Assembly (NCBI GenBank): GCA_964445095.1
Contig: CAYUJR010000001.1
Span: 48,283-103,695, forward strand
DNA: 55,413 nt
Direction: 5' to 3'
Source of the DNA: an uncultured Gammaproteobacteria bacterium
GTDB taxonomy: Bacteria > Patescibacteriota > Microgenomatia > Levybacterales > JACOYD01
Under the pieces are notes generated by a model. It was not told the DNA's origin. It did not search any database and was given only the letters and a program-made list of their open reading frames with translations. Position 1 is the first letter of the stretch. Each line of letters begins with the position of its first letter. The translations under genes were made by a program, and so were the position numbers. Below, piece by piece: positions 21,045-54,353 of this stretch.

Positions 21045-21800
21045 TTACTGATATTGATTCTTGAGGTATCTCATGCATGCTGCTGGAAAACGAAGGGAAG
21101 AAAAAAAAGAAAAAATTAATCCCTGCCAGGAGTCCATAAAGCCTTTATGCTTCACGTAAGTTAATAAAAACCACCAAATTGGTTTAATAAATAGATAATC
21201 CAACAACATCAGAGGCCCGGGTTTATCTACCCGCAGTTCATCTCTAATAAGATTTACATAACGATTCCAGCGTAATAAATATCTGCTGAAAGTTATATCA
21301 GCCATATGAATTAGCGGGTTTTTAAGATAACCAACTTCACCCTCAACAACTGCCTGTTCATGAACGCTTTTTTGTGGCAATCTTCCTTTACCTCGCTTGT
21401 ATAGTCGGAGAGTATAATCGGGATAAACTCCACCCTTCATCAAAAATCTTCCTAAAAACCAATTTTTTCGTGGAATCCAATAACCAACGACTAATGACTG
21501 GTGACTAATGGCTGACTTAATCTCTCTGACAAGAGCTGGAGAAACTCTTTCGTCTGCGTCTAATTGTAAAATCCAATCCTTTGTCGCCATATCTATGGCT
21601 ATTTGTTTGTTAATATGAAAAATTGGCTTATTACTAACTACCCTTATTCTTGCTCCATATTTTTTGGCAATTTTAACGGTTTTATCAGTTGACTCCCCAT
21701 CAACAATAATAATCTCATTTGCTAAACTCTTAACGGAGGAAAGACAATCCGATAGATTCTTCTCCTCGTTATAAGTCGCCAAAACCACTGACAAGCTCAT
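21045..21800 (-). CDS. Glycosyltransferase family 2 (paralog group with 50396..51175 and 52724..53632)
   Basis: LSVVLATYNEEKNL, IIVDGESTDKT, QLDADE and GYWIPRKNWFLGRFL..GVYPDY. Confidence 0.8.
   Translation of the reverse strand: MSLSVVLATYNEEKNLSDCLSSVKSLANEIIIVDGESTDKTVKIAKKYGARIRVVSNKPIFHINKQIAIDMATKDWILQLDADERVSPALVREIKSAISHQSLVVGYWIPRKNWFLGRFLMKGGVYPDYTLRLYKRGKGRLPQKSVHEQAVVEGEVGYLKNPLIHMADITFSRYLLRWNRYVNLIRDELRVDKPGPLMLLDYLFIKPIWWFLLTYVKHKGFMDSWQGLIFSFFSSLRFPAACMRYLKNQYQ
21489..21516. repeat. Decayed heptanucleotide repeat homologous to the 53313 tract
   Basis: gactaat gactggt gactaat ggctgac. In coding sense, GCCATTA GTCACCA GTCATTA GTCGTTG aligns unit-for-unit with GCCATCA x4 of the paralog. 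Confidence 0.7.
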
Positions 21801-30445: not shown

Positions 30446-32067
30446 ATGGAGTAAGCCGACAGGACGGGCTCACCATTTAATAAATAGAATGTTTTCAAAA
30501 CTGTAGCACCGCCTGGAACATTTTCTGGCGTATCAATAAAAAGTGTTTTTTTGCTATTGAGATGCTCCTTGGGGTTCTTGGTAAAAAGATATTTTTTATA
30601 TCCCTCAACATGGACAAATCCATAAGCCTCTCTATAGATTTTAGCCGTCTCTCGAAAAACTTTGGGATCTTCTTTTTTGTAAAAAAGGACGTAAATATAA
30701 GGGCGGCCCAAGCTTTCTGTAGCAACTATTTTGTCGTATTGAGATTCGACTCTTTGCGTATAGGAAATTATCTCACTATACCCATATTGCCACTCTCCGG
30801 AAAACTCTCTGGGATAATGAGTATAGTAACCATGATAATAATAAAGAAAATTAGCAGCTAGCAACAAGCAACTAGCAATTAAAAATAACTTCCTAATTCC
30901 TGATTCATAATTTCTAATTCCTGAAATGAATTGATAAAACCCGTATGCAATAAGTATCTGAAATGTAGGAAGAGTTGTTTCGATTCTCAAGGCATGAGGA
31001 GTTTCCCGGGCTGTCCCTGCTGGAATAATTCCCACCAATAACCATAAAGGAACTATCCACCAATTGCCTTCACGCCTTCTTAAAAGTAAGAATATTCCGA
31101 ACACTAAGAACGGCAAATCCCATAAATAAAGTTGGCCAACATCTTGCGTGGAAAATTTGGGATTACCGTCGCCCTTAATAAACAGAAAGTTTGGGTTAAG
31201 ATTGTCAAAATAATGTTTTAGATATTCTACTCCATAGGCTAAGCGGCGATTGTGAACTATTTTTGACCACCAAGCATTACTATCGTTCGCTATTAGCTGA
31301 TTAGTTCTCTCTATAACTCCCACATCGGAAAAAATATTTACCTCTTGAAATCTTAATTTTGCTTGAGGACTAGTTAGAAATTGTGCCAAGGGCGTAATTA
31401 GAATAACCCCTATTATTATCGCTATCAAGACATGCGTTCTTATCTTTAACAGTTGTTCCCGAAAACCTACCCCTAATAATATAAGCAAAAGAGGGGCTAC
31501 AATTCTGGCTGTATTAAATGCATACATCGAGAGAATAAAAGAACCGGCTGATAATAATAGATACCATTTCTTATCCTGTACTGCGGCTAAAAATAACCAA
31601 ACTCCGGAAATAATAAAAAATGTTGCAATATTTGCTTCAAAAGCCGCTCTGGATAAATTAATATGCCAAGGAGAAATAGCCAAGAAAAAACCACTCATTA
31701 AAGCCAAGGCTTCTACACGGAATAAACGTCTCACTAAGAAATATGTAACAAGCACAGTTAATACTCCAAAAAATGCAGAAGGGAATCTTACGGCAAACTC
31801 ATTCAACCCCAAAATCTTCACTGGTAAGATATCAAGATATGCATACACCGGCGGTTTAAAATCACCAAACGATTCCAGATATTGAATTGGTAAAAATTTA
31901 CCAAATTCATCCCGTCCATCGATACCGAGAGAATACGCGTTATATCCCCACGCCGCCTCATCCCAAGTCAAGGATGGCGGATTAGCTCCCAATTGATAAA
32001 AGCGTAGAAAAACGGCCAGTAAAATAACTATCCCTAATATAATTTTGTTATTTATTATCTTTTTCAT
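30442..32067 (-). CDS. GT39/PMT_2-like GT-C glycosyltransferase, paralog C of 5
   Basis: LRFYQLGANPPSLTWDEAAWGYNAYSLGIDGRDEF..VRFPSA. Start set to MKKIINNK (ATG 32067), which gives an ATGA overlap with the upstream stop. The track ORF extends to 32094. Confidence 0.75.
   Translation of the reverse strand: MKKIINNKIILGIVILLAVFLRFYQLGANPPSLTWDEAAWGYNAYSLGIDGRDEFGKFLPIQYLESFGDFKPPVYAYLDILPVKILGLNEFAVRFPSAFFGVLTVLVTYFLVRRLFRVEALALMSGFFLAISPWHINLSRAAFEANIATFFIISGVWLFLAAVQDKKWYLLLSAGSFILSMYAFNTARIVAPLLLILLGVGFREQLLKIRTHVLIAIIIGVILITPLAQFLTSPQAKLRFQEVNIFSDVGVIERTNQLIANDSNAWWSKIVHNRRLAYGVEYLKHYFDNLNPNFLFIKGDGNPKFSTQDVGQLYLWDLPFLVFGIFLLLRRREGNWWIVPLWLLVGIIPAGTARETPHALRIETTLPTFQILIAYGFYQFISGIRNYESGIRKLFLIASCLLLAANFLYYYHGYYTHYPREFSGEWQYGYSEIISYTQRVESQYDKIVATESLGRPYIYVLFYKKEDPKVFRETAKIYREAYGFVHVEGYKKYLFTKNPKEHLNSKKTLFIDTPENVPGGATVLKTFYLLNGEPVLSAYSI
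30853..30927. repeat. Two adjacent imperfect heptamer arrays (AGCAAYT-type then CTAATTC-type) in GT39-like paralog C
   Basis: agcagct agcaaca agcaact agcaatt (30853-30880). ctaattc ctgattc ataattt ctaattc ctgaaat (30893-30927), including an 11-nt exact direct repeat ctaattcctga at a 21-nt spacing. Confidence 0.7.
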
Positions 32068-34505: not shown

Positions 34506-36192
34506 AAGATTTTTTAGATTCTAGTATCTTGAAGACTGCCGTTCCATCGCTTCTTTTAATTTCTTCCAGTTTTTGGCTATTTTGGGGAACCGCACACGCA
34601 CTATAATTCACATAAAGCACGTTCTCTTTCCTAGTAGTTCCTTTCTCTTTACCTGTTTGATCTTTCAGTTCTCTTAAGGGACACTCTTCTTGGGAAAAAT
34701 CATACTTTCCAAACCCAATCCTATCGAAATCTTGTATCGCACTTCCTCTTGTTTCTTCTTGAAAAAGATGTGGATTGTATTTACCAAAAAAGAGGAAGAA
34801 GATGGCTGGGGCTGACTCGTGATCGGTAATAACTATCTTGTCGTAATTTACCAGATATTCCTTTGTTTTAGCAATAAGCTCTTTGTACCCATCGTGTCTG
34901 TACCATGGTCTGTAGCGCGGACCATGAACATAATATTGGTGTAAGTAATATGAAAAATTAAAAATAAAAAATAAAAAAGCAAAAAGATATATTGGATATT
35001 TTATTTGTATATTTGATATTTGATGTTTAATATTTGATAATGCAATTAATCCAACCCCTTCAATTATTGATAGTGCCGGAAAAACAAGTAAAGTTCGCTG
35101 TAAATTTGGAACATCATCAAATGTCAATGCGCTTCCAAACGGAGCTAATAATAACCATCCAATGAGAAATGCTCCGGCGCTATTTCTCATTCGTAATAAA
35201 CTCCATATGCCAAACGTAAGTAAAGGCAGTTCAAAGATTAATAATAATCCTGTAAGAGGTATTCTATATCTATCCGGAAGACCTTTATCTGTAAAAAGAA
35301 AATCATAGGAGAAGTGCTTAAAGTAATTCTGTAGTACTTGAAAGGAATAGCCCAGTGGCTTATTATGAAATGTTCTTGTAAGAAATCTTTGCACATTTGA
35401 TACCCCATCCTCACGGAGTTGTTCATCGATGATAAGTTGTGACTCTGCAGTTGCAAAAATACTAACAGTTCGTAATCGTAAAGTTAGTTCTTTTGAAAGA
35501 AAAATTATCGAAAGCGGTATGAGTATTACAAGAATAAATAGGATTAGGATAGATGTAAGTTTTTTTCTGTCGAACTTTACTTTGGGTAAGATAAATACCA
35601 TGAAGGGAATAAATATCGGAAGAAAAGCGCGGGATGCTTGGTAAATAAAGAGAGTCGCTCCAAACGATAAAAAGGAAAAAAGAAGCAGATACCATTTCTG
35701 TTTTTCTCGCCAAATAAGAAAAAGTAGAACTCCAAGACTTATAAAGAAAACTACAAGTACATTTTCATTAGCAGTCCTGGAAAGATTAATATGCCAAGGA
35801 CTAATCGTAAGTAGTATCGCAGCTATTAGCGAATAGCCAATAGCTAACGGAGACCTGCGAAATAATTCTTTAGTTAAAAAATAGGTAACTAAAATCGTTA
35901 AACTACCAAAAAATGCCGAGGCGAAACGAACTGAAAAAGCATTTAGATCAAAAATCTTTATAAAAGGTATTGAAAAATACGAATATCCGGCGGGACTGTA
36001 GAGAAATGACTCTAGATGCAAAGGCAAAAAATTGCCGCTCATGTCACGTCCTGTCTTTAAAATGGAATAGGCATTATAGCCAAGGAAGGCTTCATCTCGA
36101 TGAAAGCCAACAGGAACATCGCCCAGCTGATAGAATCGTAAAAATAATCCCAGAATAAAAATTATCCCCAGAATAAAGACTGTTCTCTTCAT
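34489..36192 (-). CDS. GT39/PMT_2-like GT-C glycosyltransferase, paralog D of 5
   Basis: LRFYQLGDVPVGFHRDEAFLGYNAYSILKTGRDMSG..VRFASA. Confidence 0.75.
   Translation of the reverse strand: MKRTVFILGIIFILGLFLRFYQLGDVPVGFHRDEAFLGYNAYSILKTGRDMSGNFLPLHLESFLYSPAGYSYFSIPFIKIFDLNAFSVRFASAFFGSLTILVTYFLTKELFRRSPLAIGYSLIAAILLTISPWHINLSRTANENVLVVFFISLGVLLFLIWREKQKWYLLLFSFLSFGATLFIYQASRAFLPIFIPFMVFILPKVKFDRKKLTSILILFILVILIPLSIIFLSKELTLRLRTVSIFATAESQLIIDEQLREDGVSNVQRFLTRTFHNKPLGYSFQVLQNYFKHFSYDFLFTDKGLPDRYRIPLTGLLLIFELPLLTFGIWSLLRMRNSAGAFLIGWLLLAPFGSALTFDDVPNLQRTLLVFPALSIIEGVGLIALSNIKHQISNIQIKYPIYLFAFLFFIFNFSYYLHQYYVHGPRYRPWYRHDGYKELIAKTKEYLVNYDKIVITDHESAPAIFFLFFGKYNPHLFQEETRGSAIQDFDRIGFGKYDFSQEECPLRELKDQTGKEKGTTRKENVLYVNYSACAVPQNSQKLEEIKRSDGTAVFKILESKKSYEEKF
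35003..35038. repeat. Imperfect ATTTGAT-family heptamer array in GT39-like paralog D
   Basis: atttgta t atttgat atttgat gtttaat atttgat. Encodes NIKHQISNIQIKY. Confidence 0.8.
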
Positions 36193-43187: not shown

Positions 43188-43917
43188 ATTTAATCAGCGT
43201 CCAAAGAGCAATCACGCCATCCCTAATAGTATTTAGTTTTTTACCTTCAGCATATCCTCTGGGGTTGGTGCTGATAGGAACTTCCATAATTTTATATCCC
43301 TTTTTTAGTAATTTGGCAGTAATTTCAGGCTCAAAGTCAAAACTTTTTGCCCGAAGGGTAATGCCGGCGAGGGCACTTTTGGGAAAAAGCTTGTAACCGG
43401 TCTCCATGTCAGTCAACCATTGACCGTAAAGAAGACTTGTCAATAGACTCAATAATCTGTTGCCAAAATAATGTAACAAGAAGCGAAATGTTTTTTCATC
43501 TCGACTAAGATCTGGCCATCTTCTTAACCTAGTGCCATAAATTACTTGAGTCTGGCCGTCAAGAATTGGCCGAATTAACTTTTCTATATCGCTAGGGTGA
43601 TATTCCAGATCGGCGTCCTGAATAATAATATACTCTCCAGACGCATTATTAATGCCGGTTCTGACCGCAGCTCCCTTCCCCTGATTATTTTTATGCTTAA
43701 CGCTTTTAAGATTTGAGATTTGAGATTTTCCGCCAGAGGCGGATCCGCCTTTGGAGGAGATATTTGATATTACCGACGCGGTAGCATCGGTCGATCCATC
43801 ATCAACTACAATTATTTCTATAGTAATCTTTGCTATTTTGAGACTAGCTATAGCCCGCAAAACTTGCCCGATAGTTTTTTCCTCGTTATACACTGGAATA
43901 ACAATAGATAATTTCAT
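43171..43917 (-). CDS. DPM1-like GT2, predicted polyprenyl-phosphate sugar synthase, with low-complexity insert
   Basis: LSIVIPVYNEEKTI, VVDDGSTDAT, NNQGKGAAVRTG, IQDADLEY and FEPEITAKLLKKGYKIMEVPIS. The insert ISNISSKGGSASGGKSQISNLKS lies between the DGSTD and GKG motifs. Confidence 0.8.
   Translation of the reverse strand: MKLSIVIPVYNEEKTIGQVLRAIASLKIAKITIEIIVVDDGSTDATASVISNISSKGGSASGGKSQISNLKSVKHKNNQGKGAAVRTGINNASGEYIIIQDADLEYHPSDIEKLIRPILDGQTQVIYGTRLRRWPDLSRDEKTFRFLLHYFGNRLLSLLTSLLYGQWLTDMETGYKLFPKSALAGITLRAKSFDFEPEITAKLLKKGYKIMEVPISTNPRGYAEGKKLNTIRDGVIALWTLIKFRFLN
43704..43771. repeat. Composite: ATTTGAG-type heptamers, GC-rich palindrome, ATTTGAT heptamer
   Basis: ttttaag atttgag atttgag attt (43704-43728). 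ccgccagaggcggatccgcc, with the perfect 14-nt palindrome aggcggatccgcct at 43737-43750. atttgat att (43762-43771). Confidence 0.8.
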
Positions 43918-47071: not shown

Positions 47072-48125
47072 AGAAATTTTCTTTACTATAGGTTAGCGAT
47101 GAAGTTTTAGCGCTTACGGACAATCTCTGCCAAACACGCTCCTCTCTAATAACCCATAGTGTTTTATCCTGTAGTTCAGGGAGGGTGTTCCAGAGTAATC
47201 CGTTCTTTTTATCTTTGACAATTTCTCTTTGACCTCCAGCGTTAATCACGATTGGCACAGTACCTGCTCCCATAGCTTCAACTGTAGAAATGCCAAAATG
47301 CTCCGCATATTCCGGATGTTTTATCAAATCTTCGCCGAAACCGCTGGCATGCCAATAAATTTTAGCCAGATTATAATAATTCCACAATTGTCTGTTATTC
47401 TGGTTAACTACAAACTGAATCGGTAATCCCTCTGTCCCTTTTTTCATCTCTTCTAACACATTTTTATCTTGGTCTTTTACGCTTACTGCTAACACCAGCT
47501 TCCAACCGCGTAATCCTTTTTTGAGCAGTTGCTTAAATGCTTTTACCAATACTGTTTGTTTTTTATAATCGCTAATAGGCCGACCCTCAATAGTAACATC
47601 TTTAACTCGCAGCCTGCCTACATTTAGGATAATATTTTCTTTTTGTATTTTCTTGGCATGTGTATCAACTGGAGGATATATTACCTTGGTATTTTTGCCA
47701 AACTTTTTGTCAACAAACGATTTAGTAAAATAGGAATTGCAAAATATATCAGCAATTCGAGTCAGTTTTAATTTTTCCCATAAAGAGAGTTTACTCAAAT
47801 GCTCCATTGGCTGCTGAAAATGGAGGAAAAGCTTGTGACATAGGAGAAAAGGAATACTCCCATCGCTTAAGATAATAATTATGTCAAATCTTCTGGATAT
47901 TAGAAGTCTTTTCCAGATGGTTACATCTTTAGAAAAAATGTTTTTGACAAATTTAACTCGAGATAGATCAATGGAAAAACGCTCTAGAAATTCTTTAATG
48001 TCTTTTTTACTATCCCAAAAAACACTCACTTCATGCTCTTTTGATAAGTACTCCGCTATAGACATCATGTATTTCTCGCCACCGCCTAAATCATCCATGT
48101 AGGGATTATAAATACCAATTTTCAT
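47040..48125 (-). CDS. Glycosyltransferase family 4 (GT-B)
   Basis: MKIGIYNPYMDDLGGGEKY start and EHFGISTVEAMGAGTVPIVINAGGQREIV motif. Confidence 0.8.
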   Translation of the reverse strand: MKIGIYNPYMDDLGGGEKYMMSIAEYLSKEHEVSVFWDSKKDIKEFLERFSIDLSRVKFVKNIFSKDVTIWKRLLISRRFDIIIILSDGSIPFLLCHKLFLHFQQPMEHLSKLSLWEKLKLTRIADIFCNSYFTKSFVDKKFGKNTKVIYPPVDTHAKKIQKENIILNVGRLRVKDVTIEGRPISDYKKQTVLVKAFKQLLKKGLRGWKLVLAVSVKDQDKNVLEEMKKGTEGLPIQFVVNQNNRQLWNYYNLAKIYWHASGFGEDLIKHPEYAEHFGISTVEAMGAGTVPIVINAGGQREIVKDKKNGLLWNTLPELQDKTLWVIREERVWQRLSVSAKTSSLTYSKENFYEKIDDIIKS

Positions 48126-50415
48126 AGATAAATTCTATCTGGCTTTCTCCGGCTGGAATAACAACTGCCCGAAAGGTGTAATCTGCTCTATAAATTTTAA
48201 CATCTTCTCCGCTTAATTTTGCTTTCCAACCGGGGTAAAAATTATCCGAGAGAAATAAAAATGCTGGACTGTCGGTCTTGACGGCAATAATAATTTTATT
48301 CGGGGTATATGAAATAATTTGGGCGCTTCCGCTGCCTTCTTTGCTTGGCGCAAAAAAAGGCTTATCTTCTACAATCAATGTCTTTCTAAAATCAAAGCTA
48401 TCGCTGTAAAATCTTTTGATTATTTCCCGATCGCTTTTTATCACCTCAAAATTATAAAAGAGTAAAGCTCTGGGTAATGCTAGATTATTTTTAAATAGCT
48501 GATGCTTGCTGTCTTGATAAGCCAATGTATATCTTTTTGGGTCCTGCCAAACCGGATAAGCCCAGCCGGCATTAGTATCGCTGATAGGATTAAAAATTAA
48601 AGAAACTCCTAATAGGTCTAACGCTCGGTCGGTAAATCTTCCCCGCCTATCAAGGTTTACCACCGACCGTTCTCCCTGTAAAAATTCTCCTGTACCCGCG
48701 CTTCTTATAAATTCGCCATAGCGGTTGACGTATAAAGGATCATAGCCTTCAATAATAGGAAAACCGTAATAAGAAGAAACCCCTGCTCCAATATTGCCAA
48801 AGATTCGCCCGCCCCCAATATTTTTTTTAATCGCCTCAATAACAGGAACCGGCGGATAAACTAATCCTTTTGGATCAAACGGCATCCATTTTTGGGCGAA
48901 GCGAAGGCTGTCGAAAGAAGCAACAAGTAACAGGTAACAAGTAATAAGTAATATAAATTTTTTATTAATTTTTAAAAGACCAACAAAAAATACTACGCCT
49001 ATAAATAATACTGTCGGCAAGACTAAATTTCTTTTTGCCACAATCAGCCATTCCTGTGGATATACTTTTCCAAAAAACAGCAGAAGCCAAATGGAAGCAA
49101 AAAAAACTGCCACCAAGGTAAATAATGCTATCATCTTTTTATTTTCCCTAACATCTCTAATTCCCCTAATTTCCCCAATGAGCCGGTCAAAACCAAATCC
49201 CGCCAGAACCGCCAGCGAAAAACTAAACAAAACAATAATTCTTGATTGAGCGCTTGTTGATAAAACAGGAATTTTTAAGGAGACTATAATATTAGAAATA
49301 TTAAGATTAATAGGAATATTATAAATATAAAAAACTGGGATGTATACAGCAAGAAGAAGTGATACTACTGCTAAAATTACAAAAAATGATATTTTCTTTA
49401 TCTGTATTCTCAAAATTGCATAAATGGCAAGCATTAATGGGATGATGCCGATAAACGACGCCCATTCGGCATAATGCCCAAACCAGTCATTTCGAGTAAC
49501 AGGATTACCAAAAAAATCCGGCGAAAAAACAGTAACAAGATATTGAAAAGGTATCGCCTCGCCTACTTGAAAAAGCTCACTGCGAACCGATTGACCATAA
49601 AGTCTTATCGATGGTAAGAGCTGTGGCAGTGAAAGAACTAAACCTAATAAAATAGCAACTAGCAATTGGTAATTAGCAATTAGTTTTTTAACCGATAGTG
49701 CATTAAAAAAAGTATAAGCAATAATTGCTACTAGAAAATATAAACCTATTTGAAAATGACCGGAGAAAAACGACAGAGGAATTGTCAGAGCAAGTAGTGC
49801 CAAAAAACGTATTTGTCTTTGCTGATAATATTTTTCAATAGCAAAAAGAGCAAGCGGCAAATATAAAATTGCAAAAGCCAATGTTCCATAAGCCATCCAT
49901 ACCACGATGAAGCCACAGAACATAAAACTAATACTACCAATCAGTAATCCCGTAGCGCTTATCTTAAGCGTTTTTAAAAACATCGACATGAAAATTCCTG
50001 CTAATAATGGTTGTAGAAGAATTAAAATGCTCCAGGCATCGATAAAGGGAAGTAAGGAAAAAAGAGCATTTCCAGGGGAAAGTACCGCCGATTGAAAATT
50101 GGCTAAATGAGGATTGCCGGAAAAACTATATGGGTTCCATAAGGGTATCTGACCGTTTTTCCACGTTTCGATAGTAAATTTCTTCCAGGGGTATATTTGG
50201 GTATGAACATCAGGCATGGCATTATTTTTGACCGGTCCCCAAAATTGTTCATAATGACTCCAGGGGGCAAAAAAATTTACCTGATAAGTCGAGGCATAGG
50301 GAACTTTTTCCTTAATAAAATAAGGACTGGCAAAAATAAACCAAAGCCCGAAGATAAAAATAATCGGCCAGAATCTTAATAAAAAGTTTTTAGTTTTAAG
50401 TTGTAGTTTTGACAT
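48106..50415 (-). CDS. YfhO-family GT-C membrane glycosyltransferase, paralog D of 4
   Basis: FFAPWSHY..IYPWKKF..NGQIPLWNPYSFSGNPH. C-terminal LSDNFYPGWKAKLSGEDVKIYRADYTFRAVVIPAGE. Start set to MSKLQLKTKN (ATG 50415). The track extension to 50502 would overlap the upstream GT2 by 107 nt. Confidence 0.8.
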   Translation of the reverse strand: MSKLQLKTKNFLLRFWPIIFIFGLWFIFASPYFIKEKVPYASTYQVNFFAPWSHYEQFWGPVKNNAMPDVHTQIYPWKKFTIETWKNGQIPLWNPYSFSGNPHLANFQSAVLSPGNALFSLLPFIDAWSILILLQPLLAGIFMSMFLKTLKISATGLLIGSISFMFCGFIVVWMAYGTLAFAILYLPLALFAIEKYYQQRQIRFLALLALTIPLSFFSGHFQIGLYFLVAIIAYTFFNALSVKKLIANYQLLVAILLGLVLSLPQLLPSIRLYGQSVRSELFQVGEAIPFQYLVTVFSPDFFGNPVTRNDWFGHYAEWASFIGIIPLMLAIYAILRIQIKKISFFVILAVVSLLLAVYIPVFYIYNIPINLNISNIIVSLKIPVLSTSAQSRIIVLFSFSLAVLAGFGFDRLIGEIRGIRDVRENKKMIALFTLVAVFFASIWLLLFFGKVYPQEWLIVAKRNLVLPTVLFIGVVFFVGLLKINKKFILLITCYLLLVASFDSLRFAQKWMPFDPKGLVYPPVPVIEAIKKNIGGGRIFGNIGAGVSSYYGFPIIEGYDPLYVNRYGEFIRSAGTGEFLQGERSVVNLDRRGRFTDRALDLLGVSLIFNPISDTNAGWAYPVWQDPKRYTLAYQDSKHQLFKNNLALPRALLFYNFEVIKSDREIIKRFYSDSFDFRKTLIVEDKPFFAPSKEGSGSAQIISYTPNKIIIAVKTDSPAFLFLSDNFYPGWKAKLSGEDVKIYRADYTFRAVVIPAGESQIEFIYENWYL
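48920..48954. repeat. Imperfect GTAACAA-type heptamer array in YfhO-like paralog D
   Basis: gcaacaa gtaacag gtaacaa gtaataa gtaatat. Encodes a TM segment, LLITCYLLLVA. Confidence 0.7.
49654..49688. repeat. Imperfect AGCAAYT-type heptamer array in YfhO-like paralog D
   Basis: agcaact agcaatt ggtaatt agcaatt agttttt. Encodes LIANYQLLVAI. Confidence 0.7.
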
Positions 50416-51175
50416 TTGAGTTTTGCGATTTGAGATTATTCTGTAACTCCCAAAGTCTGGCATAAGTAATAAACATACTAAAAGCTTGATATATACTCTC
50501 AATTAGTCCTACCGTCCCCGCCTTCCAACCGCTCTGTCTTATATACGAATCAAAAAATGCGGTAAGCATTACACGCGGAAACCGCCACCATGTCATTTGA
50601 GGATGTCCCGCTTTTAGCCGTAGCTCTGCCTCAATTTTAGACCACTCGATAGTTTTCTCAACCATTGAAGTAAAGTCTTTGTGCGTATAATGCAGTAGGA
50701 ATCCATCAAGCTCCCCTATTTTTCCATCAATAACCGGACTTTCGTGAAGCTGCCCTCGCCATTCTTTTAATGCATCTTTTCTAAAAAGCCGCTCTATTTT
50801 CTCAATATACGGCCACTCGTGCTTTCCGAAGTAGAAATTTTTCCTGCTAATCCTAAAAACAGCATAATTTTGATATTTGATATTTGATATTTGATATTTG
50901 ATATTGTCGCGAAGCGACGTTGTTATCCGTTCATCCGTATCCACATACAAAACCCATTCCCCTTTTGCCTCTTGTAATCCCTTATTTCTCAACTGGGCAA
51001 AACTGTCTGTATTAATAGTCAAGACTTTAGCCTTAAGATATTTAGCAACTTCTGCCGTCCTATCTGTCGACGAGTTATCAACTACAATTACCTCATCGGC
51101 AAAATCAACAGAGGTGATGGCATCAGCAATCTCACCCTCCGCATTTTTAGCAATAATAATAATTGACAGCTTCAT
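50396..51175 (-). CDS. Glycosyltransferase family 2 carrying a perfect heptanucleotide tract
   Basis: LSIIIIAKNAEGEI, VVDNSSTDRTAEVAK, VDTDE and RISRKNFYFGKHEWPY. Paralog of 21045..21800 and 52724..53632. Confidence 0.8.
   Translation of the reverse strand: MKLSIIIIAKNAEGEIADAITSVDFADEVIVVDNSSTDRTAEVAKYLKAKVLTINTDSFAQLRNKGLQEAKGEWVLYVDTDERITTSLRDNIKYQISNIKYQNYAVFRISRKNFYFGKHEWPYIEKIERLFRKDALKEWRGQLHESPVIDGKIGELDGFLLHYTHKDFTSMVEKTIEWSKIEAELRLKAGHPQMTWWRFPRVMLTAFFDSYIRQSGWKAGTVGLIESIYQAFSMFITYARLWELQNNLKSQNSNVKTTT
50414..50437. repeat. Imperfect ATTTGAG-family heptamers at the GT2 stop / YfhO start overlap
   Basis: atttgag ttttgcg atttgag att. Covers the C-terminal tail of 50396..51175 and lies immediately upstream of, and overlaps, the YfhO-like D start codon (ATG 50415). 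Confidence 0.6.
50869..50906. repeat. Perfect heptanucleotide tandem repeat (TTTGATA) about 5.4 copies, in-frame in a GT2 gene
   Basis: Five exact units at 50869-50903 plus a partial ttg. The coding-sense unit ATATCAA encodes NIKYQISNIKYQ. Confidence 0.95.
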
Positions 51176-52080
51176 AACTCGTAGCTTCCTCTACCAAATT
51201 TTCCCAGGTAAAAATCCAGCGCTCCTCTTTTTTGCCATAATCTACCATTGATTAATAACCCGAAACTTTCTCGCAAAAGTGCTAGTTTTGACCGAAGCGG
51301 TGCATATCTTATGCCAAAAAGCAACCGGTTTCTGGTAATGTAATAATCTTGAAGTGAGGAACCAGAACCGCCTGCTGAACCGGCGTTTTTGTGCCAGAGC
51401 ACTGCTCTTGGATTAAATACTATTTTAAAACCGGCTTTTTTTGCTCGAAGAGAAAAATCACTGTCTTCATAATACAAAAAATATTTATTGTCTAACATCC
51501 CAATTCTTTCAAAAACGCTTCTTTTAATCATCATGCAACACCCACTGGCGAAATCCGTTTCTTCTTCTTTTTCATATTGACCACCGTCAACATCGTCAAC
51601 GCCCCGGTGTCTACCAACGACATTTTCCCAATCAACTATTCCTCCCGCATACCAAATAACTTTCCCCAAATCTTCCTTTTTATATCTGTCTTTATGAAAT
51701 TCAAAACTAGGGGCAAAGTAAATTTTGGGGGCCACCATTCCGATCTTTTTGTCCGATTCTGCAACTTTAACAAGTTCGTTAACCAAATTTTTATCAACAA
51801 CAGTATCATTATTCAGAATAATAACGTACTCTGCCCCATTTCTTAGTGCATAATTAATGCCAACATTATTCCCTCCCGCAAATCCTAAATTCTCTTTATT
51901 TCTAATAATCTCTACCCTTTCCCCTTTACCCTCTACCCTAAACTCTTCTTTTGATCCGTTATCAACAACAATAGTTTGTAGTTTGTAGTTTGTAGTTTGT
52001 AGTTGACTAAGGCTCTCTAGGCACTCCAGTGTATCTCTAGTCCCATTCCAATGGAGGATGATTATAAAAACAGTTTTCAT
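51172..52080 (-). CDS. Glycosyltransferase family 2 (WbbL/rhamnosyltransferase-like class) carrying a perfect heptanucleotide tract
   Basis: VFIIILHWNGTRDTLECLESL, VVDNGS, NLGFAGGNNVG, ILNNDT and FLYYEDSDFSLR. Confidence 0.85.
   Translation of the reverse strand: MKTVFIIILHWNGTRDTLECLESLSQLQTTNYKLQTIVVDNGSKEEFRVEGKGERVEIIRNKENLGFAGGNNVGINYALRNGAEYVIILNNDTVVDKNLVNELVKVAESDKKIGMVAPKIYFAPSFEFHKDRYKKEDLGKVIWYAGGIVDWENVVGRHRGVDDVDGGQYEKEEETDFASGCCMMIKRSVFERIGMLDNKYFLYYEDSDFSLRAKKAGFKIVFNPRAVLWHKNAGSAGGSGSSLQDYYITRNRLLFGIRYAPLRSKLALLRESFGLLINGRLWQKRGALDFYLGKFGRGSYEL
51972..52004. repeat. Perfect heptanucleotide tandem repeat (TAGTTTG) about 4.7 copies, in-frame in a GT2 gene
   Basis: Four exact units at 51972-51999 plus a partial tagtt. 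The coding-sense unit CAAACTA encodes QLQTTNYKLQT. Confidence 0.95.
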
Positions 52081-52727
52081 TCCGTAGTAATTTTTACTCT
52101 GGCTTGAATAAGTTGAGTGCGGGCTCCTAATTGAGTTTTCATTTGCACCCGATAAAGCTTGTTGCCACTACCTAATCCCAAGGCAGTAGAAATCAATAGC
52201 TTTGGCTCTCCTCCTTCTATAGAAAGCTCCGAGGGCCATACCATATTTTTATCGCTCACATTATATAGTCTGACATAAGTTGTCTGATTACCGGTGGGAG
52301 TATAAAGCGAGGCTTCAAAAACTGCACTTTTTATCCGACCGTATTTAGTATTATCTATGTAGGTCTCAACTCCTGGAACATCTGTCCAATCCTTGGCTGT
52401 ACTCTCGCCTGAACCTAGCGATATCAAAAATTCCCGAGCCGGCCCAGCTACTTGACTGCCAATCGCACTAGTATTTTGCGCAGGAACAATATTAATAGAT
52501 GCTGTAGCTATTTTTACTATCTCTTCTACTTCCTGCCGAGTAATACCTATAGCATCAGCAGAAGCTGTCGCTACCGACTGCGATCCTCGTTCCACAAAAA
52601 CAACTTGCTTTTCCGGTAGATTTTTTTCCTGAACAAAAAATTTATAATCTAATAATATTAGATTACCTAAAGCGAGCAGTAAAATTATTCCCGCTAAAGC
52701 CAGTAGAACCCTTCGTAGTTTAGTCAT
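52077..52727 (-). CDS. Membrane-anchored extracytoplasmic protein of unknown function
   Basis: Start set to MTKLRRVLLALAGIILLLALGNLILL (ATGA overlap with the upstream stop at 52724). It has a single N-terminal TM anchor followed by a beta-rich soluble domain. No recognisable motif. Confidence 0.5.
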   Translation of the reverse strand: MTKLRRVLLALAGIILLLALGNLILLDYKFFVQEKNLPEKQVVFVERGSQSVATASADAIGITRQEVEEIVKIATASINIVPAQNTSAIGSQVAGPAREFLISLGSGESTAKDWTDVPGVETYIDNTKYGRIKSAVFEASLYTPTGNQTTYVRLYNVSDKNMVWPSELSIEGGEPKLLISTALGLGSGNKLYRVQMKTQLGARTQLIQARVKITTE

Positions 52728-53632
52728 AAAAACTTCCTTTGCAGTTTTAATAATAATTTTTCCCAAATATTTTTACTGTCATTTAAGCGTGCTGTGATTA
52801 GCCAAAAATTTAACTCTCCTCTTAGCTTTTTTGACTCATTCTGGAGCGAATTGAGGGAAATTTTGTCCGTCGGCGCAAAATTTTTCTTCTCCCAAACAGT
52901 CACAAAAACAATCAAATGATAAAAGGCCATTAGTAGGCTTAAAACTAGTCCATGAAGTCCATCTTTATAACCTTGTTGGGCAAAAAAACGATTAATGAAC
53001 TCTTTGGCCGGCATCCTAATGCTATCCAAGTAGTTGAATTGATAATTATTTCTTAGCAGGTTTTGAGCTTCGTTGGGAGTATAAATATAGGTAAGTTTAT
53101 TTAAAAATTGACTGACATTATCGTAGTTTAAGTGCTCGAGATGGTTAGTCAATTTTTCTGTGAGGCCGGCAACTTCTACCATTTCATGAACATGCCGTTC
53201 GGGAAACTTACCCTTGCCTTTCTTGAATAACCTTAATTGATAGTCCGGATACCAACCGGTGTGACGCATCCATTTGCCAAAAATGATATTTTTTCTGGGA
53301 ATCCAGTAGCCACTGATGGCTGATGGCTGATGGCTGATGGCTAAGAGTATTTCTTTTTTAAGCTCTGGTGTAACTCGTTCATCCGCATCCAAACTAAGAA
53401 TCCAATCTCCCGTGGCTTTAGTAAATCCGAAGTTCTTATTGACATTAAGCATTGGGTTGTTGGACCGGGCATAGATTCTTGAGGTGTATTCTTTGGCAAT
53501 TTGGGCGGTTTTATCGGTTGAGGAGTTATCAATAAATATTATCTCATCCGCCAGCTGGCAGATTGACCCTAGACAATCGCGAATCTTGTCTTCCTCATTA
53601 AAAGCAGAGATAACTACCGACAGTCCTATCAC
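52724..53632 (-). CDS. Glycosyltransferase family 2 carrying a perfect heptanucleotide tract
   Basis: GTG start. LSVVISAFNEEDKI, FIDNSSTDKTAQIAK, SLDADE and GYWIPRKNIIFGKWMRHTGWYPDY. Confidence 0.8.
   Translation of the reverse strand: MIGLSVVISAFNEEDKIRDCLGSICQLADEIIFIDNSSTDKTAQIAKEYTSRIYARSNNPMLNVNKNFGFTKATGDWILSLDADERVTPELKKEILLAISHQPSAISGYWIPRKNIIFGKWMRHTGWYPDYQLRLFKKGKGKFPERHVHEMVEVAGLTEKLTNHLEHLNYDNVSQFLNKLTYIYTPNEAQNLLRNNYQFNYLDSIRMPAKEFINRFFAQQGYKDGLHGLVLSLLMAFYHLIVFVTVWEKKNFAPTDKISLNSLQNESKKLRGELNFWLITARLNDSKNIWEKLLLKLQRKFL
53313..53342. repeat. Perfect heptanucleotide tandem repeat (CTGATGG) about 4.3 copies, in-frame in a GT2 gene
   Basis: Four exact units at 53313-53340 plus a partial ct. 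The coding-sense unit CCATCAG encodes ISHQPSAIS. Confidence 0.95.
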
Positions 53633-53639
53633 ATCTACA

Positions 53640-53667
53640 ATTGTATCAATTTGAGGGATTTTTTCAA
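53640..53667 (-). promoter_or_regulatory. Sigma70-type promoter with extended -10 (GT2 52724..53632)
   Basis: Minus strand: TTGAAA (53667-53662), 16-nt spacer, TGaTACAAT (-10 at 53645-53640), then 7 nt to GTG 53632. Confidence 0.6.
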
Positions 53668-54353
53668 AATGCGGGATTTAAACTCTTAAGTGGGGGAAGA
53701 AGTTTTCTAGCAATCAGAAAGGATAATATATGTTTAACCACAAAATAGGATGCAGAGATACCAAGAGCAAAAAGCAACCGTTCCTGTATGACAATTGGGA
53801 TAAGATTATTCCAGACCGAGGCCGGCAGATTAAACGCCCAAATCCAGGCGGCTCCCCCGACTGCGTGGGCGGTAAATGTGGCACCCAAGCTTTGGATAAG
53901 AAGCTTATCTCGTTTAAGATACGCGAGAAGTGGAATGGTCCAAAAGAGAGAGTAATACCAAACCGTTCTGCCTATGGGATGAGCAACAAATGCAATTATA
54001 GCAATAAGCGGTACGAGCAAAATCCACCGATTTTTTCCTCCCCAATTTTTCCTACTTCCCTTACCACTCACTACCCCGAAATACCACACCGCAAAAAGCA
54101 TGGGGAAAAGACGGATAATCGCGCCTGTTGTAAAAGGGACTTGTTTAACAGTGTAATTGACAACCTCAACCACCAATACCGAAATAACTCCAAACAACGG
54201 TCCCAAGAAAGTACCGGCTATGGGGCCGAAGAAGTCAAACAGAGTAAAAGAAACATTGCTACCCGCGAGTCTTGTAAATGGCACTTGAAAAGTAATAAAA
54301 CCAATAACCGAGAAGAGAACAAAAAAAATCAACCGAGCATTTTTCTTTATCAT
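53664..54353 (-). CDS. Integral membrane protein of unknown function (about 6 TM)
   Basis: 229 aa and hydrophobic throughout. Preceded by a TTGACA-17-TAATAT promoter. No recognisable catalytic motif. The antisense ORF 53730..54377 is judged spurious. Confidence 0.55.
   Translation of the reverse strand: MIKKNARLIFFVLFSVIGFITFQVPFTRLAGSNVSFTLFDFFGPIAGTFLGPLFGVISVLVVEVVNYTVKQVPFTTGAIIRLFPMLFAVWYFGVVSGKGSRKNWGGKNRWILLVPLIAIIAFVAHPIGRTVWYYSLFWTIPLLAYLKRDKLLIQSLGATFTAHAVGGAAWIWAFNLPASVWNNLIPIVIQERLLFALGISASYFVVKHILSFLIARKLLPPLKSLNPAF

Follow-up and report, generated by a model that had tools for sequence, protein, structure and literature searches.

Can a short, perfect DNA repeat inside a glycosyltransferase gene serve as a mutational on/off site in an ultra-small groundwater bacterium? 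The question is raised by a 55,413-nucleotide (nt) stretch of contig CAYUJR010000001.1 (assembly GCA_964445095.1, positions 48,283 to 103,695), here called the window, whose host is a Levybacteria-like Patescibacterium (Microgenomates, candidate phyla radiation, CPR). One of its genes, GT2a, encodes a glycosyltransferase of family 2 (GT2) and carries a perfect tract of a heptanucleotide unit; two further GT2 genes of the same operon, GT2b and GT2c, carry tracts of their own (Table 1). Pathogens classically vary their surface by means of repeats in glycosyltransferase genes that can shift the reading frame. Here, the GT2a tract is proposed to be a slippage-prone coding heptanucleotide microsatellite in a tolerant loop, able to give rise to null alleles, a reading that stands about an even chance of being right. 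That the tract probably slips is suggested mainly by a comparison of homologous sequences, in which the repeat unit has changed in all copies together.

A perfect heptanucleotide tract in frame

On the plus strand, the GT2a tract reads CTGATGG four times followed by CT, for which Tandem Repeats Finder (TRF) gives a period of 7 and 4.3 copies, with 100% matches. Its coding sense, (G)CCATCA(G), is in frame with GT2a and gives the residues L-A-I-S-H-Q-P-S-A-I-S-G. Alleles rebuilt with one unit removed or added are truncated. Loss of a unit brings in a TAA at codon 131 and leaves 130 amino acids (aa) instead of 302, while gain of a unit brings in a TAA at codon 144 and leaves 143 aa instead of 302. 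Two other roles for the tract were considered and ruled out: programmed ribosomal frameshifting, as a slippery site of the form X XXY YYZ is absent, and coding on the plus strand, which is interrupted by a TGA inside the tract.

Most of what an earlier note had read from the bare sequence of this region is confirmed. It described a perfect (CTGATGG)x4.3 tract, lying in frame within a GT2 gene, at which one-unit changes would cut the enzyme short soon after residue 105, and it placed perfect tracts in two other GT2 genes. TRF, the translated coding sense, the rebuilt alleles and, for the family assignment, the PF00535 profile, the DxD motif and the modelled GT-A fold all agree with these statements. 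Both shifted frames also end at a TAA as described, but they do so 27 and 35 codons past the tract rather than about 25 and about 33.

Repeats of this kind are not expected by chance. In a census of perfect tandem repeats (unit 2-12 nt, at least three copies, at least 18 nt), the only ones in the window are the tracts of GT2a, GT2b and GT2c. In 200 simulated versions of the window (second-order Markov), a perfect repeat of at least 28 nt (unit 4-12 nt) never arose, and heptamer repeats of at least 21 nt came up at 0.005 per simulated window.

Under the proposed mechanism, the reading frame would shift whenever one or two units are gained or lost at replication, 7 not being a multiple of 3. A slipped tract would give a null allele of 130-143 aa and would probably also disturb the translationally coupled genes downstream; further slippage could regain the frame and restore the enzyme. 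The site would be old, common to orthologs and to a paralog, and kept perfect by cycles of unit loss and gain. The working frame would be the state normally found. With few copies and probably a low rate, the tract would act as a mutational on/off site, and it would be one example of a bias toward 7-nt repeats that is common to the lineage. Slippage would, on this proposal, be ongoing in the present strain and reversible.

The tract falls in a loop of a GT-A enzyme

GT2a belongs to glycosyltransferase family 2 and has a GT-A fold. It matches the Pfam profile PF00535 (Glycos_transf_2) at 1e-27, with 97.6 bits against a cut-off of 23.3. The aspartates D82 and D84 of its D-A-D-E motif are invariant across 60 homologs and lie at strand 77-82 of an AlphaFold2 model (60 homologs) with a mean predicted local distance difference test (pLDDT) score of 93.8. 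Foldseek searches with this model placed SunS/ThuS first, with WrtF, TarS and SpsA also matched and E-values down to 5e-12, while the best sequence match in the PDB was GmaR (8e-24). The best matches are GmaR and SunS-type protein or peptide glycosyltransferases. Likeness to GtrB, DPMS and ArnC is weak and confined to the N-terminal part (E 1e-4 to 1e-7). A transmembrane glycosylation system of the CsbB/GtrB + YfhO type would have a GT2 that makes a polyprenyl-phosphate sugar and, encoded beside it, a YfhO/GT-C transferase. A YfhO gene (PF09586) does share the operon with GT2a and the surrounding cluster holds many GT-C genes; the likeness of GT2a to GtrB is among the weak ones.

The residues encoded by the tract, 98-107, span the end of a helix (89-100), a loop (101-105) and the start of a strand (106-117) in the model. 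This segment is also the part of locally lowest confidence, with a pLDDT of 87 compared with 96-97 in neighbouring stretches.

Repeat units change in concert across relatives

The best relatives are metagenome-assembled genomes (MAGs) of Levybacteria, Gottesmanbacteria and Woesebacteria from groundwater, and the sequencing runs that contain it are likewise groundwater metagenomes. In the closest GTDB species representative, GT2a has 59% identity. The closest relatives by GT2a identity are the loci L081 (88%) and L083 (78%), and the repeat is lost or scrambled in both.

The most informative comparison is between the window and two further loci whose loops have the same length of 34 residues. 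At the DNA level, the window has (CCATCAG)x4.3, L204 has (CAATCAG)x5 and L205 has (CAATCAA)x5. Neighbours in this chain differ by a single base, and that base is altered in every copy, even though the L204 and L205 proteins are only 59-65% identical to the GT2a of the window. Degenerate versions of the CCATCAG family are found in L082, L206, L083 and the GT2a paralog of the window. A comparable single-step chain links the units of GT2b, namely AAACTAC, AAATTAC, AAATTTC and AAATCTC.

Peptide selection cannot account for identical units, since the units are read in three registers. Perfect unit identity at this divergence implies repeated replacement of copies by their neighbours, which amounts to loss and gain of units. 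As single-unit events shift the frame, the lineages concerned would have passed through OFF intermediates or, alternatively, through rarer three-unit events.

Heptamer tracts recur at homologous sites

Heptamers also dominate the perfect repeats of related loci, of which 80 were collected, totalling 880 kb. Among perfect tandem repeats of at least 20 nt in this set, 23 of 24 are heptamers, with 3.0-5.0 copies, and none has a unit of 3, 6 or 9 nt. In an alignment of 81 GT2a orthologs, perfect runs of at least 29 nt occupy the same loop in five other species (L004, L033, L044, L046 and L058), with mutually unrelated units (AGACCAA, AAATTGG, AAATCCA, AGAACTC and AATCATC). The loops of these five are 37-39 aa long, compared with a mean of 33.3. 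Remnant runs of 15-20 nt are present at the loop in 7 more orthologs, against a background run of 10-12 nt. At the protein level, a 7-residue periodic peptide was found at the loop in 40 of 107 further orthologs from a protein collection, 17 of them with runs of at least three. In the GT2a family, loop length has a strong mode at 34 aa; the pattern xISxQxS is widespread.

Other enzymes carry their tracts at fixed positions as well. GT2b tracts precede the IVVDN strand in five species and the window, and GT2c tracts occupy the same post-DxD loop in L007, L050, L067 and the window. Eight perfect tracts lie at about residue 150-256 of PF10131/YfhO-like membrane proteins, where they encode hydrophobic-aromatic heptads such as ILYTLYF. 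A GT4 gene in L018 (6779-6808) has the unit AATATCA, encoding NIKYQIS. In all neighbouring genes of related loci, the tracts are in frame and at recurrent positions. As a separate observation, the AATATCA unit forms a perfect tract both in the L018 GT4 gene and in GT2c of the window, so that units recur in unrelated genes of different species.

Broken alleles in nature

Naturally disrupted copies of GT2a were sought with the predicted 130-aa OFF product. This search found seven short homologs that enter the shifted frame of conserved downstream sequence, and in five of these (P0128, P0129, P0131, P0165 and P0175) the frame shift is located at the loop. The DNA of three loop-broken alleles was examined. 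L207 has an out-of-frame, imperfect five-unit tract built of CCATCAG, TCATCAG and CAATCAG, while in L208 and L209 the D-to-N distance is 74 nt against a modal 102 nt, a shortfall of 28 nt or four units.

Two further orthologs are split. In L210, a hairpin-rich insertion of 119 nt (686-804), flanked by an imperfect direct duplication in which 27 nt of the tract region are repeated, interrupts the gene. Apart from the insertion, its identity to the six intact copies L212-L217 is 99.7-100%; no second copy of the insert was found among the loci retrieved. In L211 (1191-2126), the ortholog is split by an in-frame TAG inside a degenerate tract and has the same length as the intact, 85% identical L212. 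Judged from these rare alleles, GT2a is lost at times in nature, with the loop as the place where the gene breaks.

The search for ON and OFF states

All eight perfect tracts at the GT2a loop are ON (window, L004, L033, L044, L046, L058, L204 and L205), as are about 20 perfect tracts in neighbouring genes. In total, about 30 tracts were seen, none of them OFF and all with only 3-5 copies. OFF alleles occur only with imperfect or collapsed tracts (L207, L208 and L209) or with other lesions (L210 and L211).

Several results weigh against slippage of the GT2a tract. No 7-nt length variant at the locus was found in the contigs of seven public runs (X1-X4 and X6-X8), a search of low power in Logan k=31 contigs at 4-20x depth, from which rare variants are dropped. 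Such contigs cannot bridge the 30-nt tract together with both flanks, and alleles longer than the assembled one are invisible in them. The predicted GT2a products of plus or minus 1, 2 and 3 units are absent from a collection of 15 billion proteins, a comparison of little power in which the strain is represented only once. Products of GT2c with plus or minus one unit are also absent from this collection, where the wild-type proteins are present on one contig only. Copy number is almost invariant among relatives (4.1-5.1), and no in-frame alleles of 7-8 copies occur; this near-invariance fits either a slow process or a constraint on length. Among the broken alleles with DNA examined, none has a clean change of plus or minus one unit in a perfect tract. 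A loss of exactly four units is insecure for L209, since its nearest relatives have 96-nt (32-aa) loops, which would make the difference -22 nt. Slippage was also rejected for the split alleles L210 and L211, both found within 90%-identity clusters and accounted for by an insertion and a nonsense codon, respectively. Finally, the pattern of concerted evolution could also be mimicked if a hot spot were re-amplified independently, a process that would itself need gains of units.

The same unit is attached to other sequences in the public runs. In X1, X6 and X7, a contig whose left flank (...CCTCATATAATCTTCCGTAATCTCCACCCA, at least 1.9 kb) is unrelated terminates in (CTGATGG)n at window position 53312, and a 362-nt contig of X7 links this flank to the right flank of the window. 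The second flank had no match in the window or in any retrieved locus. It may belong to another gene with the CTGATGG unit, to a recombinant, or to an artefact of the k=31 graph. X1 also contains pure-repeat 31-mers of CTGATGG, which are not assignable to this locus because its assembly graph shows the second left flank and, in addition, the repeat cycle has an extra break that points to a further flank with the same unit. The ortholog tract (AGACCAA)n of L004 has the same ambiguity. More broadly, (CTGATGG)n of at least three units was found in more than 120 metagenome contigs among the matches listed (L084-L203), all unrelated to this locus, most with a GC content above 45% and with perfect lengths of 21-103 nt. 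No allele of this locus was among the listed metagenome matches to (CTGATGG)x3. One of the listed contigs, L085, has a weak GT2-like match that ends at its (CTGATGG)n tract.

Alternative explanations

Three other accounts of the tract have been considered, the first of which gives it a function. The tracts of GT2a, GT2b, GT2c and the GT-C genes might form a dedicated contingency locus, kept by selection for mutability and giving up to eight operon states. Any population would then contain cells that differ in which glycan-modifying enzymes are on or off, of use for example in escape from phages or from recognition by a host or partner; this is possible, if somewhat unlikely. The architecture is like that of the pglE heptanucleotide repeat, in a system where four phase-variable pgl genes give 16 phasotypes (PMC7157529), and tract positions are fixed in three GT2 families, in PF10131/YfhO-type GT-C enzymes and in a GT4. 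Natural inactivation of orthologs indicates that the gene is dispensable at least sometimes, and the 3-, 6- and 9-nt units expected of a neutral process in coding DNA are absent. Glycan genes hold 24-25 of the 26 tracts in related loci compared with about 70% of the sampled DNA, but this enrichment is not significant as first computed (raw p = 0.17), and the test is weak because the sampled loci consist mostly of glycan genes. Selection for switching is further hard to reconcile with the absence of OFF states among about 30 tracts in assembled relatives, given that classical contingency loci are commonly OFF, and with copy numbers of only 4-5, narrow lengths and no variants at this locus in k=31 contigs. 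Up to eight glycan states, as the earlier note proposed from the three GT2 tracts, could arise in principle; the evolutionary data support gain and loss of units, not a dedicated switch.

At the other extreme, an inherited peptide repeat conserved for the sake of the protein, with no special instability, is extremely unlikely. The modal loop length, the widespread xISxQxS pattern and the in-frame state of all tracts would fit such a static repeat. However, peptide selection cannot hold four DNA units identical across three registers, the tracts are perfect and differ by a change in all copies although flanking genes have diverged to 59-65% protein identity, and the repeat is gone or scrambled in the closest relatives (88% and 78% identity). 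It is also very unlikely that a lineage-specific activity, such as reiterative synthesis by a polymerase, a primase or a reverse-transcriptase-like enzyme, writes tracts of about 30 nt at permissive sites, with only incidental effects on coding. Units that are almost exclusively 7 nt, tract lengths of 29-36 nt over many genes and species, the same units at other loci of the same communities (with foreign flanks on both (CTGATGG)n and (AGACCAA)n) and loops 3-7 aa above the usual length in the five perfect-tract orthologs with unrelated units would all be in keeping with it. Nevertheless, no candidate enzyme or template was found, and ordinary slippage with a polymerase-footprint bias and an in-frame constraint (21-nt steps) explains both the unit size and the narrow lengths. 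The loop that holds the window tract is of modal length, and the tract has the look of one that was inherited and homogenised, not freshly written. Moreover, (CTGATGG)n is widespread at 21-103 nt in unrelated metagenome contigs of higher GC content. The slippage-prone microsatellite in a tolerant loop is preferred here. A much broader reading, which is unlikely as matters stand, would have Microgenomates keep a lineage-wide 'glycan phasome' of 4-5-copy heptamer tracts at helix-loop junctions of GT2, GT4 and GT-C enzymes, where OFF/ON cycles homogenise the units and supply combinatorial surface-glycan variants in aquifer populations.

Comparison with known systems

Several bacterial genes are controlled by similar repeats. 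The O-acetyltransferase gene neuO of prophage CUS-3 in Escherichia coli K1 has a heptanucleotide, (AAGACTC)n, in its 5' coding region, and its tracts are long and highly polymorphic between strains. As would hold for GT2a, a full-length enzyme is made only at one copy-number class modulo 3, and the peptide is heptad-periodic. Unlike those of neuO, the GT2a tract is short and of constant length, and it lies inside the gene, past the DxD motif, rather than at the 5' end.

A second parallel is pglE of Neisseria meningitidis and N. gonorrhoeae, a protein-glycosylation glycosyltransferase gene that is phase-varied by an intragenic heptanucleotide repeat (PMC7157529). Both cases involve a 7-nt coding repeat in a glycosyltransferase gene, a frame shift upon unit change and several variable enzymes that could combine into different glycoforms. 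However, pglE switching has been demonstrated in isolates and OFF states are common, whereas no variant was seen here and all perfect tracts of relatives are ON. The GT2a tract further differs in its 4-5 copies and nearly invariant length, in a position conserved over a phylum-level clade with units that evolve in concert, and in its host, a free-living or episymbiotic groundwater CPR bacterium rather than a host-adapted pathogen. The lipopolysaccharide glycosyltransferase genes lic2A and lgtC of Haemophilus influenzae are tetranucleotide contingency loci (PMC2651432). They share with GT2a a simple sequence repeat (SSR) inside a surface-glycan glycosyltransferase gene and on/off states set by frameshift, but have a 4-nt instead of a 7-nt unit, many more copies, measured high switching rates and frequent OFF states.

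Heptamers as a class are reported to be over-represented among bacterial SSRs, for which slippage related to the polymerase footprint has been offered as an explanation (Mrazek, Guo and Shah 2007, cited in PMC4692102). Most of the cases that PMC4692102 describes, from Xanthomonas and Nostoc, are intergenic and G-rich. The tracts described here have A/T-rich or mixed units in 4-5 copies, lie in loops of coding sequence and, in this sample, fall mostly in glycan genes. Repeat-driven frameshifting of glycosyltransferases is already known; the present case differs in its restriction to heptamers of 4-5 copies, the conserved positions, the concerted units and the CPR host. A full-text literature search found no report linking CPR bacteria or Patescibacteria to such repeats or to phase variation.

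If the tracts slip at useful rates, ultra-small groundwater bacteria could use them to diversify the extensive surface-glycan machinery that takes up much of their tiny genomes, which is relevant to escape from phages and to host-cell attachment. A true phasome would extend contingency-locus biology to free-living or episymbiotic ultra-small bacteria, beyond its known setting of hosts and pathogens. Even on a sober reading, the locus is a clear natural case in which a coding microsatellite has evolved in concert over deep divergence. Annotators, too, should be aware of the strict 7-nt slippage bias, because such sites yield apparent pseudogenes.

The operon and its gene cluster

The order GT2a, anchored protein, GT2b, GT2c and YfhO is conserved in relatives. 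The earlier note had named an anchored protein, two GT2 genes and a YfhO gene downstream of GT2a, and these identities hold. The 4-nt overlaps that it reported are present between GT2a and the anchored protein, between the latter and GT2b, and between GT2b and GT2c, all of the ATGA type, but the overlap of GT2c with the YfhO gene is 20 nt if that gene starts at ATG 50415. GT2b also matches the NCBIfam model TIGR01556 at 3.5e-26, under its curated cut-off.

Table 1. Coordinates of the features in the window and of tracts in related loci
Feature	Location	Strand	Description
GT2a	52724..53632	-	GT2, 302 aa, GTG start, GT-A fold, DAD 82-84, helical C-terminal half
GT2a tract	53313..53342	-	plus strand (CTGATGG)x4.3, coding sense (CCATCAG); encodes A98-S107 (AISHQPSAIS)
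Promoter-like site	53640..53667	-	TTGAAA-16-(TG)TACAAT, ends 7 nt before GTG start
Anchored protein	52077..52727	-	membrane-anchored, 216 aa from ATG 52727, no family match; ATGA 4-nt overlap with GT2a stop
GT2b	51172..52080	-	rhamnosyltransferase-like GT2, 302 aa; PF00535 2e-17
GT2b tract	51972..52004	-	perfect, plus strand (TAGTTTG)x4.7, coding CAAACTA; encodes LQTTNYKLQT just before IVVDNGS strand
GT2c	50396..51175	-	GT2a paralog, 259 aa; PF00535 3.7e-16; about 30% identity to GT2a
GT2c tract	50869..50905	-	perfect, plus strand (TTTGATA)x5.3, coding TATCAAA; encodes NIKYQISNIKYQ; same post-DxD loop as GT2a tract
YfhO gene	48106..50415	-	YfhO-type GT-C membrane glycosyltransferase, PF09586; probable start ATG 50415
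GT2a paralog	21045-21800		carries decayed heptamer tract in same loop as GT2a
Decayed tract	21484..21515	-	TCAGCCA/TTAGTCA/CCAGTCA/TTAGTCG, encodes SAISHQSLVV; same unit family as GT2a tract
Imperfect period-7 arrays	48918-48951, 49653-49683, 50385-50437, 51913-51939, 43705-43728, 30890-30922, 34989-35039		TRF
PF10131/YfhO-like tract carriers	L008, L016 (two), L033, L037, L039, L046, L069		500-600 aa, upstream of GT2a
YfhO 5'-end tracts, GT2c/YfhO junction	L002 8695-8721, L016 6262-6281, L023 8624-8655		(AAAAATG)x2.9-4.6

A promoter had also been claimed upstream of GT2a. A promoter-like site is indeed present, with 10 of 12 consensus matches in a consensus scan, and it is conserved in L081 and L083, but such sites are no more frequent in the region than expected by chance (3 against 2.2 +/- 1.4). 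The 40-nt spacer that contains it (53633-53672; L081 769-810; L083 776-806) is nearly identical in the three loci and reads TTGAAA-16-TG(A/G)TACAAT-TGTAGAT-GTG, while the flank upstream diverges. The putative promoter is plausibly functional because the spacer is conserved despite this divergence. No Shine-Dalgarno sequence precedes the GTG start of GT2a, and the promoter would be predicted to give a leaderless or near-leaderless GUG message.

The operon is part of a larger unit. From 17823 to 53632, nearly all of the window is one minus-strand surface-glycan supercluster, in which most junctions overlap tightly. It contains 8 GT2, 1 GT4, 4-5 YfhO-type, 6 PMT_2-type and 2 PF10131-type GT-C genes, together with 2 epimerases. 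At the 5' end of the YfhO gene, where three related species have (AAAAATG)n tracts (Table 1), the window has only a degenerate heptamer pattern of period 7/14 (50385-50437). Many other imperfect period-7 arrays, with 71-94% matches in TRF, lie within YfhO, PMT_2 and GT2 genes of the window. These arrays resemble heptamer tracts that have decayed and suggest that such tracts arise and degenerate across the cluster.

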